64,000 bases of DNA from Betaproteobacteria bacterium (GTDB lineage Bacteria > Pseudomonadota > Gammaproteobacteria > Burkholderiales > CAIKXV01), in assembly GCA_021298815.1 (NCBI GenBank), contig JAJTHE010000040.1, positions 3,999 to 67,998 on the forward strand, in the 5' to 3' direction. How positions within the stretch are numbered: position 1 is the stretch's first letter; each line of letters begins with the position of its first letter. A program made the translations under genes and the position numbers. The notes beneath the pieces were generated by a model that made no database searches, had not been told where the DNA came from, and saw nothing but the letters and a program-made list of their open reading frames with translations. This document shows positions 33,208 through 41,322 of the stretch, one piece after another.

Positions 33208-33849
33208 TTGAACCCCGCGAAGCGGCGCGCCATCTTCGAGCGGTTCGCCTCGGCGAACCCGCATCCGAAGGGCGAACTCGACTGGCAGACGCCGTTCCAG
33301 TTGCTGGTCGCCGTGATCCTCTCGGCGCAGGCGACCGACCGCAGCGTCAACCTCGCCACCGCGAGCCTGTTCCGCGAGGCACCGGGCCCGCGCGAGATGC
33401 TCGCGCTCGGCCGGGAAGGCATCGAACGCCACATCCGTACGATCGGGCTGTTCCGCGCCAAGGCGAAGCATGTCGAGGAGACCTGCGCGATCCTGCTCGC
33501 GGAACACGGCGGCGAAGTGCCCGACGACCGCGAGGCACTGGAACGCCTGCCGGGGGTCGGGCGCAAGACCGCAAACGTGATCCTGAACATCGCCTTCGGC
33601 CATCCGACGATCGCGGTGGACACCCACCTGTTCCGGCTCGGCAACCGCATCCCGCTCGCGCCGGGCAGGACGCCGCTGGAGGTCGAGCGGCGGCTGCTGA
33701 AGTTCGTGCCGCCGGACTACCTGCAGCATGCGCACCACTGGCTGATCCTGCACGGGCGCTACGTGTGCAAGGCCGTGCGTCCTGACTGCCCGAACTGCCT
33801 GATCAACGACCTGTGCGAGTACCGCGGCAAGACGGTGGCCGACGCATGA
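33208..33849 (+). CDS. nth: Endonuclease III
   Basis: 213-aa track ORF (TTG start) with HhH-GPD motif LPGVGRKTANVIL and C-terminal Fe-S cluster ligands C-x6-C-x2-C-x5-C (CKAVRPDCPNCLINDLC). Confidence 0.92.
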   Translation: MNPAKRRAIFERFASANPHPKGELDWQTPFQLLVAVILSAQATDRSVNLATASLFREAPGPREMLALGREGIERHIRTIGLFRAKAKHVEETCAILLAEHGGEVPDDREALERLPGVGRKTANVILNIAFGHPTIAVDTHLFRLGNRIPLAPGRTPLEVERRLLKFVPPDYLQHAHHWLILHGRYVCKAVRPDCPNCLINDLCEYRGKTVADA

Positions 33850-34283
33850 GCATGTTCCAGCCCACGCGCGACGAAGCGCGCAGCTTCCTCGCCGATGTCT
33901 GGCGCAAGCACAAGGCGCGTGAACCGCTTGCACCGCTGGAAGCGGTGACGGTCGACATCATCGCGGCGCATCCCGAGTACCACCTGCTGCTCGAGACCGT
34001 GCCCGCGGCCGACCGGCGCGACTTCCTGCCCGAGGGCGGCGAGGCGAACCCGTTCCTGCACCTGCATCTGCACCTGGCGCTGGCCGAGCAACTGTCGATC
34101 GACCAGCCGCCGGGCATCGCCGCAGCCTACCGGCAACTCCTGGCCCGCATGGGCGAGCCGATGGCCGCGCAGCACGCGGTGATCGACTGCCTGGCCGAAA
34201 CCCTGTGGCGATCGCAGCGCGACCAGGCGCCGCCCGATGGCGAGGCCTACCTCGCATGCGTTCGGCGGCGCGCCTCCGGCTAG
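33846..34283 (+). CDS. DUF1841-family protein
   Basis: Track ORF 33813..34283 trimmed to ATG 33846, which overlaps the nth stop (ATGA). HPEYHLLLE and NPFLHLHLHLALAEQLSIDQPPGI are typical of DUF1841. Confidence 0.8.
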   Translation: MSMFQPTRDEARSFLADVWRKHKAREPLAPLEAVTVDIIAAHPEYHLLLETVPAADRRDFLPEGGEANPFLHLHLHLALAEQLSIDQPPGIAAAYRQLLARMGEPMAAQHAVIDCLAETLWRSQRDQAPPDGEAYLACVRRRASG

Positions 34284-34663
34284 TTGCGGACGGTCGAGAG
34301 CGTGCCCTTGAGGCGCGCGTAGTATGCCGCGAGGTCGCGGAAATCCTGCTCGCTCAGGTTGGCGATCTGTGCCGTCATGATCGCGTTCTTGCGTGCGCCC
34401 GTGCGGTAGGAGCGCAATGCATGCAGCAGGTAGTCTTCGTACTGGCCAGCGAGCCGCGGGAACGTCGGCGCTATGCTGTTGCCGTCCGCTCCGTGGCACG
34501 CCGCGCAGGGCTTGGACAGTTCCGCGCCGCGCTGCACGTTCTGCGCGATCGCCGGCGCAGCCAGCAGGGAAAGGAGAAGGCCCGCGCAGGCCGCCACGCG
34601 TATGGTGCAGCCTCCGAGGGACAGGGGGCCGAGGGACAGGGTCGTCATGGTCGTCGCGCTCAT
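34280..34663 (-). CDS. Monohaem class I cytochrome c (c4-domain-like)
   Basis: Track ORF 34280..35236 trimmed to ATG 34663 (ATG 34648 is also possible). It has a signal peptide, the haem motif CAACHG, and a distal Met region KNAIM..DLAAYYARL. Confidence 0.8.
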   Translation of the reverse strand: MSATTMTTLSLGPLSLGGCTIRVAACAGLLLSLLAAPAIAQNVQRGAELSKPCAACHGADGNSIAPTFPRLAGQYEDYLLHALRSYRTGARKNAIMTAQIANLSEQDFRDLAAYYARLKGTLSTVRN

Positions 34664-35025
34664 TTGCCGGCCGCCGTCGTCGAACGCAGGCCGCCCTGGC
34701 CGTAGAACGCGGCGAGGTCCGCCATCGCCTGGTCTGTCAGCGACGAGGCGATGGCGCGCATCGTCGGATGGGTGCGTTCGCCGCTGCGATAGGCCTGCAG
34801 CGCCGCAACGATGTATTCGGGATACTGGTTGCCGATCTTCGGGAAGTGGAAGACCTCGGGATACGCGTTGCGCAGGCCGCTGATGCCATGGCAGCCGGAA
34901 CACATCGCTGCACGCTGGGCACCCATCCGGGCGTCGCCGGTGACGGTCTGGGCGGACGCCGTGACGGCGGACGCGCCGAGCAGGACGGCCGCCACGCCGA
35001 TGAAACTGCTGACTGCATTCTTCAT
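34660..35025 (-). CDS. Monohaem class I cytochrome c (c4-domain-like)
   Basis: Track ORF 34660..35262 trimmed to ATG 35025 (MKNAVSSFIGVAAVLLGASAVTASA). It has the haem motif CSGCHG and THPTM..DLAAFYGQ. Its stop overlaps the next cytochrome start (ATGA). Confidence 0.8.
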   Translation of the reverse strand: MKNAVSSFIGVAAVLLGASAVTASAQTVTGDARMGAQRAAMCSGCHGISGLRNAYPEVFHFPKIGNQYPEYIVAALQAYRSGERTHPTMRAIASSLTDQAMADLAAFYGQGGLRSTTAAGK

Positions 35026-35301
35026 CGCTACACTGCTTTCTCGCACCGCAAAGTGGCACGGACTGTAATGGAATCGGGGGTACCCGGTCAATCGACGCAG
35101 GGCCGTTGCTCCCGGCCCGGTTTGCCGCAATGCCCCGCTTCGCCGATAATCGACGGCGGTCGGATGCAGCTGGGCCCACGCTGCCCGGATCGAGCGCGTT
35201 GCCGTACCTTGCGACGCATGCGGCGCCCTCGCCCAACCACCATCCATCGTCCGTCGGGACATCCGGAAAACGTGGCTCCGATTTTAACCGATTCGAACAG
35301 G

Positions 35302-37128
35302 TTGCCCCGTACGTTCCTTCGTGTGTTTCCCTTCATGCGCTGGCTGCCGGGAACGACCCGCCAGAGCGCACGCGCCGACCTGATCGCCGGCCTGACCGGC
35401 GCGGTGATCGTGCTGCCGCAATGCGTCGCCTTCGCGACCCTGGCGGGCATGCCGATCGAGTACGGCCTTTACTGCGCGATGGTGCCAGCCGTGATCGCCG
35501 CGCTGTTCGGGTCGTCCTGGCACCTGGTTTCCGGCCCGACCAACGCGATCTCGATCGTGCTGTTCGCCTCGCTCGCGCCACTGGCCGAGCCGGGCAGCGC
35601 CCGCTACGTCGAACTGGCCCTGACCGTGACGCTGCTGGTCGGCGCCATGCAGCTCGCGATGGGGCTCGCGCGGCTGGGCACGCTGGTCAACTTCATCTCG
35701 CATACGGTGATCGTCGGCTTCATGGCGGCGGCCGCGGTGGTGATCATCGATGCGCAGCTGAGCACCTTCTTCGGCCTCCCGATCGCGCGCGGGGCCGGCT
35801 TCTTCGACACGTGGGGGGCGCTGGTGATGCGCGCCGACGAGATCGACCTGCATGTGACCAGCGTCAGCCTGATCACGCTGGTCAGTGCCATCCTGCTGCG
35901 ACGCTACCTGCCGCGCTGGCCCTACATGATCATCGCGATGGCGGTGGGTGCGCTGGCGGCGCTGGCGATCGAGTCCGCCACCGCCGGCGCCGCGCGCATC
36001 GCGACGGTCGGCGCGTTGCCGGCCGCGCTGCCGCCGCTGTCGATGCCCGACCTGTCCTCCACGACGCTCCGCGAGACCGGCGCGATCGCCCTCGCCATCA
36101 CCATCCTGGCGCTGACCGAAGCCGTGTCGATCGCGCGCAGCATCGCGGTGCGCTCCGGCCAGCGCGTGGACAGCACGCAGGAGTTCATCGGCCAGGGCCT
36201 GTCCAACATGGCGGGCGCGTTCTTCTCCAGCTATGCGTCCAGCGGCTCGTTCAACCGCAGCGGGGTCAACTACGAAGCCGGCGCGCGCTCGCCGCTGGCG
36301 GCCGCCTCCTCGGCGCTGTTCCTGCTCGCGATCCTGTTCGCCGTGGCCCCGCTCGCGGCCTACCTGCCGAACGCGGCGATGGCTGCGGTACTGCTGATCG
36401 TGGCCTGGGGACTGATCGACTTCCGCGGCATCCGGCAGATCCTCGCCGCGAGCCGCAGCGAGGCGGCAGTGCTCCTGCTCACCATCCTGTCGGGCGTCTT
36501 CGTGAGCCTCGAGTTCTGCATCCTCGCAGGTGTGATGCTCTCGCTGATGCTGTACCTGAACCGTACCTCCCGCCCTGCGCTGGTGCCGCTGGTGCCCACG
36601 GCGGCACCGGTCGACGAACCGGGCCGGCGCCGGTTCGTGCCGCTGGCCAGGGCGGGCACCGCGGGCGAACCAGCGCAGCGCCCGCCGCAGTGCCCGCCGC
36701 AGTGCCCGCAACTGCTCGTGCTGCGCGTCGACGGTTCGCTGTTCTATGGCGCGGTCGAGCATGTGCGCGACCGGCTGCACGAGCTGGCCGGCGGCCCGGG
36801 GCAGCCGCGGCACCTGCTGCTGCTCGGCGACGGCATCAACCTGATGGACATGGCCGGGGCGCACCTTCTCGAGGGCGAGGCGAAGCGGCTCGCGGACGCA
36901 GGCGGCGGGCTGCATCTCGCCGCGATGAAGCCGGCGGTGGTGGAGATGCTCGATCGCTCCGGGGCGCTCGCCGCGATCGGGGCCGGCCGCCTGTTCGAGC
37001 GCAAGGAGGATGCACTGGCGGCGATCGTGCCGCGGCTGGATGCAGCGACCTGCGCCGGCTGCACGGCACGCGTGTTCGACCAGTGCCCGGCGGCAACGTG
37101 CGCGGCACCGACGCAGGCCACCCGATGA
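35302..37128 (+). CDS. SulP/SLC26-family anion transporter with C-terminal STAS domain (paralogue 1)
   Basis: Track ORF 34393..37128 trimmed. The conserved N-terminal PF(M/L)RW segment precedes the first ATG (35335), so I prefer TTG 35302 (MPRTFLRVFPFMRWLPG); ATG 35335 is the alternative. ADLIAGLTGAVIVLPQCVAFATLAGMP is present, and a STAS-like tail LLVLRVDGSLFYGA. Confidence 0.85.
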   Translation: MPRTFLRVFPFMRWLPGTTRQSARADLIAGLTGAVIVLPQCVAFATLAGMPIEYGLYCAMVPAVIAALFGSSWHLVSGPTNAISIVLFASLAPLAEPGSARYVELALTVTLLVGAMQLAMGLARLGTLVNFISHTVIVGFMAAAAVVIIDAQLSTFFGLPIARGAGFFDTWGALVMRADEIDLHVTSVSLITLVSAILLRRYLPRWPYMIIAMAVGALAALAIESATAGAARIATVGALPAALPPLSMPDLSSTTLRETGAIALAITILALTEAVSIARSIAVRSGQRVDSTQEFIGQGLSNMAGAFFSSYASSGSFNRSGVNYEAGARSPLAAASSALFLLAILFAVAPLAAYLPNAAMAAVLLIVAWGLIDFRGIRQILAASRSEAAVLLLTILSGVFVSLEFCILAGVMLSLMLYLNRTSRPALVPLVPTAAPVDEPGRRRFVPLARAGTAGEPAQRPPQCPPQCPQLLVLRVDGSLFYGAVEHVRDRLHELAGGPGQPRHLLLLGDGINLMDMAGAHLLEGEAKRLADAGGGLHLAAMKPAVVEMLDRSGALAAIGAGRLFERKEDALAAIVPRLDAATCAGCTARVFDQCPAATCAAPTQATR

Positions 37129-39263
37129 ACCGACTGCTCCCTTTCCTTCGCTGGTGGCCGCTGAAGCGCGACGTGCTGCGCGCCGACATCGTCGCCGGCA
37201 TCAGCGTCGCGCTGGTGCTGGTGCCGCAGTCGATGGCCTACGCGCAGCTCGCTGGCATGCCGGCCTACTACGGGCTGTACGCGGGATTCCTGCCGGTGAT
37301 CGTGGCCGCGCTCTGGGGCTCGTCGAACCAGCTCGCCCATGGCCCGGCGGCCGTGTCTTCGATCCTCACCGCCTCGGCGCTGGCGCCGCTCGCCACGCTC
37401 GGCTCCGAGAACTTCGTCGCGCTGGCCATCCTGCTCGCGTTCATGGTGGGCGTGATCCAGCTCGCGCTGGGCCTGTGCCGGATGGGCAACGTGGTGAGCT
37501 TCCTGTCGCACCCGGTCATCCTCGGCTTCACCTCCGCGGCGGCGATCATCATCGGGCTGTCCCAGCTCAACAAGCTGTTCGGGCTGCCGCTCGGACGCAG
37601 CGACTTCTTCCTCGGCGACGTCTGGCAGATGCTGCTGCAGATGCCCGATGCACACCTGCCGAGCCTGGCGATAGGGATCGGCGCGATCGCCGTCATCTGG
37701 GCGTTCCGGCGCTGGCTGCCCCGGTGGCCGGGCGTTCTGGTCGCCGTCGCGCTGGGCACCGCGGTGAGCTGGGGCATCGGCTTCGAGCGCAAGGCGACGG
37801 CACCGGCCGACGCCTTCGCAGATCCGCACGTGCTGGCGATCGCGCGCGACTACCAGCAGGCGCGCGCACAGGTGCGCGAACTGGACGCAACGATCGAGGG
37901 CCTGCGCCGCGCGGACTCTGCCGCGGTCCCGCGCAGCGAAGCCCTGGCCCGCCGCTACGAGATCGAGCTCAAGCAGCTGGAACGCACCGACCTCGAGCGC
38001 GAGAACGCGCAGCGCCTGCGCGACCTGCGCCAGCTCGCGTTCCACGCCAGGCACGATGCGGATGGCGCGATCGTCTCGCTCGAGACGCCAGCGGCCGGCA
38101 GCAGCGGCGGCGGCGCCTGGCGCATCCGCGACATCCGCGGCGGCCGGGTGCAGCTCTCCGGCGGCGGGGAGGTGGTCGGCACCATCCCCGCGGGCCTGCC
38201 TTCGATCGGACTGCCGCAGCTGTCCTGGGACGCGGTGCGCTCGCTGATCAGCGCCGCGCTGGTGATGGCACTGATCGGCTTCGTCGAGGCGGTGTCGATC
38301 GGCAAGGCGATGGCCGCCCGCACCCGGCAGCGCATCGACGCCAACCAGGAACTGCTCGGACAGGGACTCGCCAACATCGCCGGCAGCCTCACGCAGGCCT
38401 TCCCCACCATGGGGTCGTTCTCGCGCTCGGCGGTGAACATCAGCGCCGGGGCCCGCACCGGCATGGCCAGCGTGGTCACCGGCCTGCTGATGCTGCTCAC
38501 CCTGGTCGCGCTGACGCCGCTGCTGTACCACCTGCCGCAGGCGGTGCTCGCCGCGGTGATCATGATGGCAGTGACCAGCCTGTTCGGCTTCCGGGCGATG
38601 AACCGGGCCTGGCGCGCGCATCGCCATGACGGCATCGCCGCATGGGTCACCTTCTTCGCCGCGCTCCTGCTGGCGCCGGCCATCGACTACGGCGTGCTGA
38701 TCGGTGCAGTGCTGGCCGTGCTGCTCTACCTGTTCCGCACGATGCGGCCACGCATGGCGCTGCTGTCGCGCCATCCCGACGGCACGCTGCGCGACGCGCG
38801 CGTGCACGGGCTGCCCACCAGCGAACGGCTGGTCGTGCTGCGCTTCGACGGCTCGCTCTATTTCGCCAACGTGCCGTATTTCGAGGACAGCGTGCTGGAG
38901 GCGGTGGCATCCTTCCCGCAGGCGCGCGAGGTCCTGATCGTCTGCGAAGGGCTCAACGCGATCGACGCATCCGGGGTGGAGGTGATCGAACACCTGTCGG
39001 AGCGACTGGCGGCCGCCGGCATCACGCTGTCGATGTGCGCGGTCAAGCTGCAGGTGATGGCGGTGTTCGACCGTACCGGCCTGTCGGCGAAGCTGGGCCC
39101 CGGAAACCTGTTCCGCTCGGCCGACCAGGGCATCGCAGCCATCGCCCTGCGCACCCCGGATCCGACCATCGCCGCCTGCCTGATGCTGCCGCGACCTGCG
39201 GCGCAGCCGGCGGCCCCTTCGGCAAGCACGACGCCGTCACCGGCCGCCATGCCGCCCCTATAA
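37125..39263 (+). CDS. SulP/SLC26-family anion transporter with STAS domain and a ~128-aa internal insertion (paralogue 2)
   Basis: Track ORF 35106..39263 trimmed to ATG 37125, which overlaps the paralogue-1 stop (ATGA). MNRLLPFLRWWPLKRDVLRADIVAGISVALVLVPQSMAYAQLAGMP is present, and the STAS tail LVVLRFDGSLYFANVPYF. 712 aa. Confidence 0.88.
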   Translation: MNRLLPFLRWWPLKRDVLRADIVAGISVALVLVPQSMAYAQLAGMPAYYGLYAGFLPVIVAALWGSSNQLAHGPAAVSSILTASALAPLATLGSENFVALAILLAFMVGVIQLALGLCRMGNVVSFLSHPVILGFTSAAAIIIGLSQLNKLFGLPLGRSDFFLGDVWQMLLQMPDAHLPSLAIGIGAIAVIWAFRRWLPRWPGVLVAVALGTAVSWGIGFERKATAPADAFADPHVLAIARDYQQARAQVRELDATIEGLRRADSAAVPRSEALARRYEIELKQLERTDLERENAQRLRDLRQLAFHARHDADGAIVSLETPAAGSSGGGAWRIRDIRGGRVQLSGGGEVVGTIPAGLPSIGLPQLSWDAVRSLISAALVMALIGFVEAVSIGKAMAARTRQRIDANQELLGQGLANIAGSLTQAFPTMGSFSRSAVNISAGARTGMASVVTGLLMLLTLVALTPLLYHLPQAVLAAVIMMAVTSLFGFRAMNRAWRAHRHDGIAAWVTFFAALLLAPAIDYGVLIGAVLAVLLYLFRTMRPRMALLSRHPDGTLRDARVHGLPTSERLVVLRFDGSLYFANVPYFEDSVLEAVASFPQAREVLIVCEGLNAIDASGVEVIEHLSERLAAAGITLSMCAVKLQVMAVFDRTGLSAKLGPGNLFRSADQGIAAIALRTPDPTIAACLMLPRPAAQPAAPSASTTPSPAAMPPL

Positions 39264-39353
39264 TCGCGCTCCACGCGAATGCAGCACGGCAGCACGCGCA
39301 CGGGAGGAGGCATGGTCGCCCCCGGTCGCGCCATCCCAGACAGGACGACGGCA

Positions 39354-39905
39354 ATGGGCTTCCGCCTCACCAGGATATACACCCGCACCGGAGACGGCGG
39401 CGACACCGGCCTGGGCGACGGCAGCCGGGTCGCGAAGGACTCGCCGCGGGTCGAGGTGCTCGGGGTCGTCGACGAGCTCAACTGCGCGATCGGCCTTCTG
39501 CTGGTCGAACCGGTATCCGCGGAAGTGCGGGAATGCCTGACCGCGGTCCAGCACGACCTGTTCGACCTCGGGGGCGAGCTGAGCATCCCGGGATACACGG
39601 CGGTGACCGAGCGCCATGTCACCCGCATCGAGGAAGTCCTCGACCGCTTCAACGGCACGCTCGAACCCCTGAAGGACTTCATCCTGCCCGGCGGCTCCCG
39701 CGCCGCCGCCGCCTGCCATTTCGCGCGTACCCTCGCCCGACGCGCGGAACGGCGGATGGTAACGCTCGGTTCGACCGAACCGGTGTCGCCGCTCGCCCAG
39801 AAGTACCTCAATCGCCTGTCGGACCTTCTGTTCGTGCTGTGCCGGGTGGTCAATCGCGATGCGGGCGTGGCAGACGTGCTCTGGCAGAAGGGCCGGACGC
39901 TCTGA
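39354..39905 (+). CDS. PduO-type ATP:cob(I)alamin adenosyltransferase
   Basis: Track ORF 39279..39905 trimmed to ATG 39354. MGFRLTRIYTRTGDGGDTGLGDGSRVAKDSPRVEVLGVVDELNCAIG is the family N-terminus. Confidence 0.85.
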   Translation: MGFRLTRIYTRTGDGGDTGLGDGSRVAKDSPRVEVLGVVDELNCAIGLLLVEPVSAEVRECLTAVQHDLFDLGGELSIPGYTAVTERHVTRIEEVLDRFNGTLEPLKDFILPGGSRAAAACHFARTLARRAERRMVTLGSTEPVSPLAQKYLNRLSDLLFVLCRVVNRDAGVADVLWQKGRTL

Positions 39906-39906
39906 A

Positions 39907-40503
39907 ATGGCTTCCGGCGTCGCGGCGGACCCGCTCGACCCTGCCCGGCTGCGCGACCTGGTCGCGCGCTGCGCGCTGCACGACCAGGCCGCCTTCGCCG
40001 AACTCTATCGTACCTCCAGCGCGAAACTGTTTGCCGTCGCCGTCCGTATATTGAGACGGGACGACCTGGCCGAGGAGGCCCTTCAGGACAGCTTCGTGAA
40101 CATCTGGAACCATTGCGTCGACTACCGCGCCGACCTTGCAGCACCGATGACCTGGATGACCAGCATCGTGCGCAACCGTGCGCTCGACCTGAAGCGCCGG
40201 CCCTCGATCGAGGTGACCGGCGAGGACAGCGATGCCTGGGTGGAGGCGTTCGAGGATGATGCGCCCGGTCCGCTCGAGCGCTTGTCCGAGGCTGGGGCGG
40301 CGCGCCGGCTGCAGGACTGCCTGTCGGTGATCGAGGCAGGCCAGCGGCAGGCGATCGCGCTGGCGTTCATGCATGGTCTGACCCATGCCGAGCTGTCCGG
40401 CCACCTGCGCATGCCGCTGGGCACGGTCAAGACCTCGATCCGGCGCGGCATGTCGAAACTCAAGAACTGCCTGGGCGGAAGCGCCGGCACAAGCCGGGCC
40501 TGA
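39907..40503 (+). CDS. ECF-type RNA polymerase sigma-70 family factor
   Basis: Track ORF 39859..40503 trimmed to ATG 39907, 1 nt after the upstream stop. Region 2 is LAEEALQDSFVNIWNH..TWMTSIVRNRALD, and region 4 is QRQAIALAFMHGLTHAELSGHLRMPLGTVKTSIRRG. Confidence 0.88.
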   Translation: MASGVAADPLDPARLRDLVARCALHDQAAFAELYRTSSAKLFAVAVRILRRDDLAEEALQDSFVNIWNHCVDYRADLAAPMTWMTSIVRNRALDLKRRPSIEVTGEDSDAWVEAFEDDAPGPLERLSEAGAARRLQDCLSVIEAGQRQAIALAFMHGLTHAELSGHLRMPLGTVKTSIRRGMSKLKNCLGGSAGTSRA

Positions 40504-40515
40504 GCGCGGATCCCG

Positions 40516-41322
40516 ATGCGCTACGATGACCCCGAACTGCGTGACCGCCTCGCCTCGGAGTACGTGCTCGGTACGCTGCACGGGCGGGCGCGGGCGCGTT
40601 TTTGCAGCCTGATGCGCTACGACCCCGACCTGCGCGCACGGGTCTCGGCCTGGGAGGCGCGCCTGGCACCGCTGGCCGAGGCGATACCGGCGCGGGAACC
40701 CCCGGCCGCGGCATGGGACGGCATCGCCGCGCGCCTCGGGCATGCGGGCGCAGTTCGGCCGCCGGCGAAAGCCGGTGCCGCCGCCGGTGCCGGCGGCGGC
40801 GGCCTGGCCGGCTGGTGGCGCGGTCTCGCCATCGCCGCCAGCCTGAGTACCCTTGCCCTGGCCGCGCTGCTGGCCGGCACTGGACTGCGCCCCGGCGGCG
40901 AGGCCGTGCCGACCGCCGCGACCGGCGGTACCGCGCAGGTCGCCTCGGCACCGGTGCAGGAAGGCATGATGGCGATCCTGACCGATGCCGAGGCACGGCC
41001 GACGATGCTGGTGTCCTGGCCGATGCAGCCAGGCAGCGACGGCATGGTCGAACTGAGGGTGCGGATCATCATGGACCATCCGACCATGGACCCGAATACC
41101 GCCTGGGAACTCTGGCTGCTGCCGCGCGCGGAAGGCGGCGCGCCGCGATCGGTCGGGCTGGTCGGCATCGAGGCCGAACAGCGCCTGCGCGTCGATGCGT
41201 CGATGCTCAAGGCGCTGCTCGAAGCGCAGGGGATGGCCCTGAGCAACGAACCCGATGGCGGCTCGCCGACCGGCACGCCGACCGGGCCGGTCATCTTCCG
41301 CGGACCCTGCGTCCGAACCTGA
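40516..41322 (+). CDS. Anti-sigma factor, RskA-like (single-pass membrane)
   Basis: 268-aa track ORF. The N-terminal anti-sigma domain LASEYVLGTLHGRARARFCSLMRYDPDLRARVSAWE is followed by a central TM (WWRGLAIAASLSTLALAALLAG) and a C-terminal extracytoplasmic domain. Confidence 0.8.
   Translation: MRYDDPELRDRLASEYVLGTLHGRARARFCSLMRYDPDLRARVSAWEARLAPLAEAIPAREPPAAAWDGIAARLGHAGAVRPPAKAGAAAGAGGGGLAGWWRGLAIAASLSTLALAALLAGTGLRPGGEAVPTAATGGTAQVASAPVQEGMMAILTDAEARPTMLVSWPMQPGSDGMVELRVRIIMDHPTMDPNTAWELWLLPRAEGGAPRSVGLVGIEAEQRLRVDASMLKALLEAQGMALSNEPDGGSPTGTPTGPVIFRGPCVRT

Follow-up and report, generated by a model that had tools for sequence, protein, structure and literature searches.

A conserved domain, predicted to be periplasmic, between the two membrane repeats of a clade of bacterial SulP/SLC26 transporters

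Two tandem SulP genes, one with an insertion

We analysed a 64,000-nucleotide stretch of DNA from a Betaproteobacteria bacterium (assembly GCA_021298815.1, contig JAJTHE010000040.1; hereafter the window, in whose numbering positions are given), which contains two adjacent genes for SulP/SLC26 anion transporters. The product of the second gene, SulP2, carries 128 residues within its membrane domain that its neighbor SulP1 lacks, and these residues are the subject of this study. The SulP1 stop and the SulP2 start share 4 bp (ATGA at 37125-37128), which suggests translational coupling of the two genes.

35335 to 37128, plus strand: SulP1, 597 amino acids (aa), insert-less SulP/SLC26 paralogue; PF00916 in one stretch (296.8 bits), STAS 49.3 bits
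37125 to 39263, plus strand: SulP2, 712 aa plus stop, insert-bearing SulP/SLC26; PF00916 in two stretches (339.5 bits), STAS 61.4 bits

SulP2 is a bona fide member of the SulP/SLC26 family. It scored above the cut-offs of TIGR00815 (412.3 versus 380.45 bits), PF00916 (339.5 versus 23.2 bits) and the STAS model PF01740 (61.4 versus 22.6 bits, aa 564-665). The coverage by Pfam and TIGR00815, the helices of an AlphaFold2 model and the Foldseek matches to SLC26 structures all indicate a complete core of 14 transmembrane (TM) helices in a 7+7 arrangement. Moreover, a Foldseek search with the full SulP2 model returned SLC26 structures only, with E-values down to 1.7e-30.

The insertion is a translated part of SulP2

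The extra segment comprises exactly 128 in-frame residues, aa 222-349, encoded by positions 37788-38171. An earlier reading of this DNA from its letters (the sequence-only reading) had placed an insertion of about 128 residues relative to SulP1 at just this position; its coordinates proved exact, every peptide that it quoted is found in SulP2, and the insertion itself is borne out by three comparisons. PF00916 matches SulP1 in a single uninterrupted stretch and SulP2 in two, the first of which (aa 18-223, profile positions 1-213 of 380) breaks off at the insertion; the TIGR00815 match resumes at aa 347. BLASTP pairs aa 8-211 and aa 351-702 of SulP2 with SulP1 and skips the segment in between. 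In the alignment to solved structures, SulP2 aa 217 to 347 correspond to prestin residues 306 to 314. At this site, TM7 and TM8 of SulP1 and of the solved SLC26 structures are joined by just ~8-10 residues, and the insertion interrupts no core element of SulP2.

Two trivial explanations that the sequence-only reading had itself named were ruled out. The first is a frameshifted, mis-called or low-complexity segment missing from homologues. The GC content at codon position 3 is 0.906 in the insert compared to 0.89-0.95 elsewhere in SulP2. Relative to the two closest genomic relatives, the rate of synonymous substitution (dS) of the insert is ~0.65, equal to the rest of SulP2, and the ratio of nonsynonymous to synonymous rates (dN/dS) amounts to 0.39-0.43 for the insert, 0.08-0.15 for the membrane core and 0.19-0.31 for the STAS domain. 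The insert is translated in the SulP2 frame and is under purifying, though relaxed, selection. Furthermore, an insert of 120-140 aa is present at the same site in all of the best 120 database homologues (54-100% identical, 685-733 aa), and all 80 related genomic loci show a gap of ~400 nt between the two core halves. These results and the confident fold described below exclude an artefact. The second explanation, extra membrane helices of an ordinary SulP core, is excluded by the charged composition of the insert (21 K/R and 20 D/E) and by its predicted α/β structure. The segment, which lies outside the TM core and just before the conserved G-x-I-P-x-G-L-P motif, is better described as a soluble module, as had been proposed, within an otherwise normal transporter.

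Predicted fold and side of the membrane

We modeled full-length SulP2 with AlphaFold2 from an alignment of 121 sequences and obtained a mean predicted local distance difference test score (pLDDT) of 83. Within the insert, pLDDT values averaged over ten-residue blocks are ~82-89 for the most part, with lower values of 68 for aa 261-270 at the hairpin tip and 58 around aa 321-330. The model shows a strand (aa 221-227), two helices (aa 234-262 and 270-302) and four further strands (aa 305-310, 316-320, 331-338 and 341-347). When the insert was modeled alone together with 32 diverse inserts, the same elements were obtained with a pLDDT of 93.3 and a predicted template-modeling score of 0.82. The insert is thus predicted to be an autonomous α/β domain that consists of a five-stranded base and two antiparallel helices of 29 and 33 residues, which form a hairpin ~45 Å long as judged by helix length. 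The features of SulP2, all on the plus strand, are as follows.

37167 to 37778, plus strand: TM1-TM7, first inverted repeat, aa 15-218 (AlphaFold2 helices; Pfam profile positions 1-213); TM7, aa 203-218, lies in the gate/scaffold domain (per PMC3988826)
37785 to 37805, plus strand: strand β1, aa 221-227 (residues 3-9 of the insert-only model), joined directly to TM7 via the conserved G-F-E (F220, E221)
37788 to 38171, plus strand: inserted domain, aa 222-349, 128 aa, predicted periplasmic α/β domain
37824 to 37910, plus strand: helix α1, aa 234-262
37911 to 37931, plus strand: hairpin tip, aa 263-269, region of highest variability, whose length differs among homologues
37932 to 38030, plus strand: helix α2, aa 270-302
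37950 to 37985, plus strand: distal half of α2, aa 276-287, consensus L-x-Y-E-I-E-L-L-x-L-E-L
37995 to 38033, plus strand: base of α2, aa 291-303, motif E-x-E-N-R-x-R-x-R-x-L-R-K
38037 to 38165, plus strand: strands β2-β5, aa 305-347, including W332-R333-I334 and L344
38160 to 38201, plus strand: G346-G347-G348-E349 hinge and V-V-G-x-I-P-x-G-L-P, the junction of the inserted domain with TM8 of the core/transport domain
38226 to 38732, plus strand: TM8-TM14, second inverted repeat, aa 368-536, with E388 in TM8 and G-S-F-S-R-S-A-V-N (aa 430-438) in TM10
38751 to 39119, plus strand: cytoplasmic STAS domain, aa 543-665 (Pfam, AlphaFold2)

The sequence-only reading had described heptad-like helices followed by a glycine-rich, β-like piece. 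The outline of this description holds, with two helices followed by four strands that end in GGGE. It does not hold as a linear coiled coil with a separate glycine tail: the model instead places the helices as a hairpin in a five-stranded sheet, makes the glycine run the C-terminal hinge and adds a strand (aa 221-227) in front of the helices that had been missed.

Both helices show the 3-4 hydrophobic spacing of an antiparallel two-helix coiled coil and are joined by a short turn (aa 263-269). Helix α1 displays a single a/d stripe (V236, L239, F243, I250, L253, I257), and α2 faces it with residues 276, 280, 283, 287, 290 and 301. By helical-wheel reasoning, α2 carries a second hydrophobic stripe on its opposite face (Y278, L282, L285), which is flanked by conserved glutamates and represents a candidate site for protein-protein contact.

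SLC26 proteins consist of two inverted repeats of seven helices each (TM1-7 and TM8-14), have both termini in the cytoplasm and comprise a gate and a core domain (PMC3988826), so that the linker following TM7 is extracytoplasmic. The short loops of SulP2 obey the positive-inside rule, with 11 K/R in the cytoplasmic loops versus 1 in the external ones. As judged from this count and the parity of the topology, the inserted domain should lie on the periplasmic face of the membrane. The TM7-TM8 linker is the junction of the two inverted repeats and also that of the static gate/scaffold domain with the mobile core/transport domain.

The domain has no described relative

Pfam yielded no match for the insert of the window, and for 32 diverse inserts the 25 most frequent families with E ≤ 1 were generic coiled-coil ones, below threshold and matched by individual members. 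HlyD, Biotin_lipoyl_2 and the like were found neither for the window insert nor among these 25 families. A sequence-profile search of the PDB with the insert gave weak coiled-coil noise only, and Foldseek searches with the insert model against the PDB and a viral structure library retrieved nothing at E ≤ 0.001. A single-sequence HMMER search with the 128-aa insert against 1.8 billion sequences returned two real matches, both SulP fragments; at ~33% identity over 128 aa, scores fall near the limit of significance, so this search is weakly informative outside SulP and says little about non-SulP copies. A profile built from 32 inserts retrieved just two short fragments, missing all 120 known carriers, and thus does not establish that the domain is absent outside SulP. 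The literature that we searched contains no description of a structured insertion at the TM7-TM8 site of SulP/SLC26 proteins. The sequence-only reading had been aware of no characterized insertion of this kind, with which our literature and database searches agree. We therefore describe the insert as a previously undescribed domain, predicted to be periplasmic, with no significant match to any described one.

Among the top 50 Foldseek matches in the PDB, seven are membrane fusion proteins of the AcrA, MacA and Spr0693 type (2f1m, 5xu0, 9tg4_E and 3fpp among them) that align over the whole domain, with E-values of 0.4-2.5, template-modeling scores of 0.31-0.44 and root mean square deviations of 14-20 Å, which is not significant. 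These matches raise the idea that the insert is a built-in periplasmic adaptor that imitates membrane fusion proteins and connects the transporter to a channel in the outer membrane or to the cell wall. The two appear to share a topology, as in both a β domain is split by an antiparallel α-hairpin that projects, or would project, into the periplasm. However, the SulP2 domain resides within the transporter chain and its five-stranded sheet does not appear to be a lipoyl sandwich; the Pfam results given above show no HlyD or lipoyl signal. An SLC26 dimer would offer two hairpins versus the six of known adaptors, the helices measure only ~45 Å and their tip is not conserved. In addition, the named recurrent neighbor clusters of the 80 loci described below do not include an outer-membrane factor gene. 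We thus take the resemblance as an apparent architectural analogy, not as membership, and consider a function as an adaptor very improbable.

The insertion marks a widespread clade

A scan with the junction peptide [GA]GGEVVGx[IV]P, which covered a single genome of each species, confirmed at least 152 relatives, and we kept 80 loci. Most carriers are Betaproteobacteria (Gallionellaceae, Sideroxydans, Thiobacillus, Sulfuritalea, Sulfuricella, Rhodocyclaceae, Hydrogenophilus, Pelomicrobium and Burkholderiales metagenome-assembled genomes); the others include Chromatiaceae and other Gammaproteobacteria, Desulfobulbus, Desulfobacteraceae and Methylomirabilota/Rokubacteria. A neighbor-joining tree computed from the core columns alone groups the 82 insert-bearing proteins in a single clade that contains no sequence lacking the insert; as the sample was chosen via the insert motif, this is consistent with a single acquisition but does not prove it. 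The alignment of homologues that the sequence-only reading had suggested thus shows that the insertion characterizes a large clade and extends well beyond the SulP2 of the window. Taken together, we regard it as highly probable that aa 222-349 constitute an autonomous and conserved periplasmic domain of ~130 residues in the TM7-TM8 linker, made of a five-stranded base and a hairpin, and that this domain goes back to a single acquisition and marks a clade present in more than 150 species.

An apparent intermediate with an 82-aa insert (L034, 3077-5011) was discarded, since by eye it looks like a mis-clustered permease of the TauE/SafE type and not a SulP protein. This 644-aa protein, encoded between the SulP1-type and SulP2 genes of that locus, appears by eye to combine the permease with two USP-like domains. 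Five loci (L024, L035, L038, L054 and L080) contain two insert-bearing SulP2 paralogues close together, in tandem or convergent.

Over 108 non-redundant family members, the mean column entropy is 2.33 bits for the insert, 0.96 for the core and 1.38 for the STAS domain. Conservation within the insert is concentrated at landmarks. The TM7/β1 junction is well conserved (F220 0.92, E221 0.98). Distal α2 is marked by L276, Y278, E281, L282 and L285, and its base by E291, E293 (0.82), N294 (0.73), R295, R297 (0.69), R299 (0.73), L301, R302 (0.88) and F306. The last two strands contribute W332 (0.95), R333 (0.89), I334 (0.84) and L344 (0.93). At the C-terminal junction, G346-G347-G348-E349 is invariant and leads into the family-wide V-V-G-x-I-P-x-G-L-P. 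The hairpin tip (aa 263-272) is least conserved, with an entropy above 3 bits and gaps, and carries the variation in length. The inserts span 123-171 aa with a median of 137 aa, and the 128 aa of the window copy lie at the short end of this range. Across the family, the mean net charge is +3.3 for the base (aa 290-349) and -1.5 for the distal hairpin.

The faster evolution of the insert (2.33 versus 0.96 bits; dN/dS of ~0.4 versus ~0.1) would suit a largely neutral structural decoration, i.e., a stable domain that was gained once and is tolerated at a permissive surface loop, and so would the coexistence of insert-less paralogues with the same core. However, neither the 82 proteins of the core tree nor the best 120 database homologues, which come from several phyla, include a case of loss, and nearly invariant landmark residues and clear purifying selection also speak against neutrality. 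We judge this explanation to be unlikely.

Neighbors of the insert-bearing genes

Neighbors were counted in the 80 loci within flanks of up to 6 kb on each side; downstream counts refer to the 59 loci with at least 3 kb of downstream sequence, and recurrent neighbors were clustered from open reading frames (ORFs) of at least 90 aa. In 10 of the 59 loci, dabB (PF00361, ~480 aa) and dabA (PF10070, ~1070-1100 aa) follow directly downstream on the same strand (L043, 4425-9177; L013, 7432-11975; L005, L008, L010, L011, L028, L031, L039 and L044). The same SulP2-dabB-dabA order is also found at L012, where the locus is incomplete. In eight others of the Rhodocyclaceae and Sulfuritalea type (L036, 7303-12258; L016, L034, L067, L070, L072, L075 and L079), SulP2 is directly followed by a hyf-like membrane module. 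This module consists of a 669-aa 'hydrogenase 4 subunit B' (863 bits against an equivalog cut-off of 667), a NuoH-like and a HyfE-like protein and a further PF00361 subunit. A 186-aa hexapeptide-repeat protein occurs in eight loci; its best named matches, both below cut-off, are the γ-carbonic anhydrase (γ-CA) domain of CcmM and 'carbonic anhydrase'. At L036, this γ-CA-like protein is encoded between SulP2 and the hyf-like module.

Insert-less orthologues of SulP1 (45-80% identity to SulP1) lie near the insert-bearing SulP2 in 24 of the 80 loci, in nine of these 24 as an immediate upstream tandem like that of the window. SulP1 is the only one of the recurrent neighbors that is present in the window. 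As SLC26 proteins are dimers, a SulP1-SulP2 heterodimer is conceivable. In Gallionellaceae-type loci (L007, L009, L020, L022, L026 and L029, e.g., 2269-3240 in L029), a gene for a DmsC-like membrane anchor (PF04976) immediately precedes the SulP1-type gene; at L060, a DmsC-like gene is located upstream of SulP2. A 137-aa protein with no match in Pfam or NCBIfam is encoded directly upstream of SulP2 in six loci (e.g., L008, 4531-4944). Of the remaining clusters, about ten smaller ones read as antisense ORFs and two are unnamed (280-aa and 166-aa proteins).

A HAMP histidine kinase and/or an NtrC-type σ54 response regulator is encoded near SulP2 in 28 of 79 loci (L004, 1425-4284; L011, 720-3812; L069, 2148-4971; and ~25 others), usually divergent from the c8-sulP2-dabBA unit. 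The kinase consists of a TM segment, a periplasmic helical segment of ~140 aa and HAMP, HisKA and HATPase domains. This arrangement and the exposed conserved hydrophobic stripe of the hairpin would be in line with a co-sensor interface, in which the hairpin contacts the periplasmic helical sensor of the neighboring kinase and the occupancy or conformation of the transporter controls the σ54-dependent expression of sulP2-dab or sulP2-hyf, much as other transporters serve as co-sensors of sensor kinases. However, most loci, including the window, lack a nearby kinase, and the insert is conserved with or without one. Moreover, transporter/kinase co-sensing such as that of DctA-DcuS uses cytoplasmic or membrane contacts. 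A role as co-sensor thus seems improbable to us.

The clade-level linkage to dabBA and the γ-CA-like gene, together with the conserved outward-facing patch of the hairpin and its flanking glutamates, might also hint that the insert provides a docking site for a partner in the periplasm, either an enzyme or a binding protein, for instance a carbonic anhydrase in a bicarbonate transport metabolon at the mouth of the transporter. Extracellular carbonic anhydrase IV reportedly binds the TM7-TM8 loop of AE1, a related transporter with a 7+7 fold. However, the recurrent neighbor clusters, built from ORFs of at least 90 aa, do not include a conserved gene for a secreted protein, and the γ-CA-like neighbor, read by eye, has no obvious signal peptide. 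We therefore consider docking of a periplasmic partner to be quite improbable.

Substrate and possible mode of action

SulP2 stays below the cut-offs of both the BicA equivalog NF050096 (126 versus 880 bits) and the DauA C4-dicarboxylate equivalog NF008660 (211.5 versus 614 bits). Its nearest solved relative is AtSULTR4;1 (7LHV; E = 4.5e-87). E388 in TM8 aligns with E347 of AtSULTR4;1, and E388, G430, F432, R434, V437 and N438 are invariant in the clade. From work on SULTR4;1, a plant H+/sulfate symporter, we take the TM10 motif and the TM8 glutamate to be residues of the anion site. The SulP family also includes bicarbonate carriers (PMC10880623, PMC12628692). The synteny of the clade hints at the handling of bicarbonate or a one-carbon (C1) oxyanion, and the binding-site motif would point equally to sulfate.

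The sequence-only reading had considered gating, partner binding and sensing as possible roles of the insertion. We tentatively propose that the insert forms a periplasmic module anchored on the scaffold of the transporter, whose base would serve as a positively charged vestibule for anions and whose hairpin would make protein contacts. We see this as possible, though short of probable. The domain would be fixed on the scaffold side, where TM7 passes straight into β1 through the conserved F220 and E221 of G-F-E, a junction without a glycine run, and its link to TM8 of the moving core would consist only of the invariant Gly-Gly-Gly hinge. With TM7 in the gate/scaffold domain and TM8 in the core domain, these two junctions suggest a domain that is rigid on the scaffold and flexibly tied to the core, and the hinge would let the core carry out its elevator movement underneath the domain. 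At the periplasmic mouth, the base with its conserved, net-positive sequence (ENRxRxRxLRK and W-R-I-K/R) may act electrostatically as a vestibule or canopy and contribute to anion capture or selectivity. The outward-facing Y278/L282/L285 stripe may engage in a protein-protein contact, for which the most economical partner would be the hairpin of the second SLC26 protomer, giving rise to a four-helix bundle above the dimer interface. The cargo would be an oxyanion; synteny favors bicarbonate or a related C1 oxyanion, and the motif would fit sulfate equally well.

Several observations weigh against this proposal. The window copy has a net charge of only +1 at the base and 0 at the distal hairpin, and A295 occupies the first arginine position of its base motif. 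The variable tip, with its unequal lengths, is a poor fit with a precisely docking tip; the lateral stripe is unaffected by this. As to bicarbonate, GSFSRSAVN in TM10 (aa 430-438) is identical to residues 389-397 of AtSULTR4;1, which fits sulfate. Finally, the 64-kb window contains no homologues of the dab, hyf, γ-CA-like or kinase genes, so that the link to bicarbonate derives solely from synteny at the level of the clade.

An extended version of the scaffold-anchored module can be envisaged in which the undescribed domain would integrate the SLC26 dimer as a node into the CO2-concentrating machinery that chemolithoautotrophs use: the Arg-rich base would serve to trap bicarbonate at the transporter mouth, and the hairpin would draw in either a carbonic anhydrase or the sensor domain of the adjacent σ54 kinase, thereby coupling uptake to the sensing of inorganic carbon. 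We offer this version as a speculation that is unlikely to apply as a whole.

Comparison with known systems

The SLC26/SulP family has been intensively studied, from prestin and pendrin to plant sulfate uptake and cyanobacterial BicA, and to our knowledge the extracytoplasmic face of every solved member consists of short loops. The members with solved structures (AtSULTR4;1, 7LHV; prestin, 7V73; SLC26Dg, 5DA0; BicA, 6KI1) have the 14-TM 7+7 core and the C-terminal STAS domain in common with SulP2. Unlike SulP2, their TM7-TM8 linker comprises a few residues, and a structured extracytoplasmic domain is absent. The SulP/SLC26 host is of a known kind, and the domain marking this widespread clade is undescribed. 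As no Pfam model exists for it, the domain is invisible to annotation, and the proteins are labeled "SulP family inorganic anion transporter".

A coiled-coil insertion has been reported in the periplasmic domain of the mycobacterial resistance-nodulation-division transporters MmpL4 and MmpL5 (PMC12346298; 10.64898/2026.01.07.698164). The likeness lies in a helical hairpin or coiled coil in the extracytoplasmic part of a secondary transporter, and the parallel is conceptual only. MmpL4/MmpL5 belong to an unrelated family with an unrelated fold, and their insertion sits inside an existing large periplasmic domain. The MmpL insertion is also considerably longer than that of SulP2.

The synteny of the clade recalls the dissolved inorganic carbon toolkit of chemolithoautotrophs (DAB/DAC complexes and BicA-like SulP), as its members precede dabB-dabA in the 10 loci listed above and some lie near a γ-CA-like gene. 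In contrast, the locus of the window lacks dab genes, and SulP2 has the binding-site motif of a sulfate transporter. The clade occurs commonly in iron- and sulfur-oxidizing and other chemolithoautotrophs, repeatedly together with DAB, hyf-like modules and a σ54 two-component system, and may thus add a component to the handling of inorganic carbon (or sulfate) in bacteria. A folded domain on the linker between the static and moving halves constitutes a natural experiment on the behavior of this linker in an elevator transporter and provides a way to regulate or decorate the transporter on its external face.

Further observations on SulP1 and the flanking genes

SulP1 has features of its own in its C-terminal part (36640-37125, SulP1 aa ~436-597), where the linker before the STAS domain contains a Pro/Cys-rich repeat, PPQCPPQCPQ. 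Its C-terminal tail is rich in cysteine as well (TCAGCTARVFDQCPAATCAAP). Both elements could relate to metals or redox chemistry, and neither is matched by anything in SulP2.

The regions flanking the SulP pair (33208-35262 and 39279-41322) encode endonuclease III, a DUF1841 protein, two cytochromes c (minus strand), a PduO-type cobalamin adenosyltransferase and an ECF (extracytoplasmic function) sigma factor with an RskA-type anti-sigma factor. An ORF that resembles endonuclease III, as read by eye from its N-terminus, also lies upstream of the SulP1-SulP2 pair in the related Burkholderiales locus L046, which is one of five loci in that ORF cluster.

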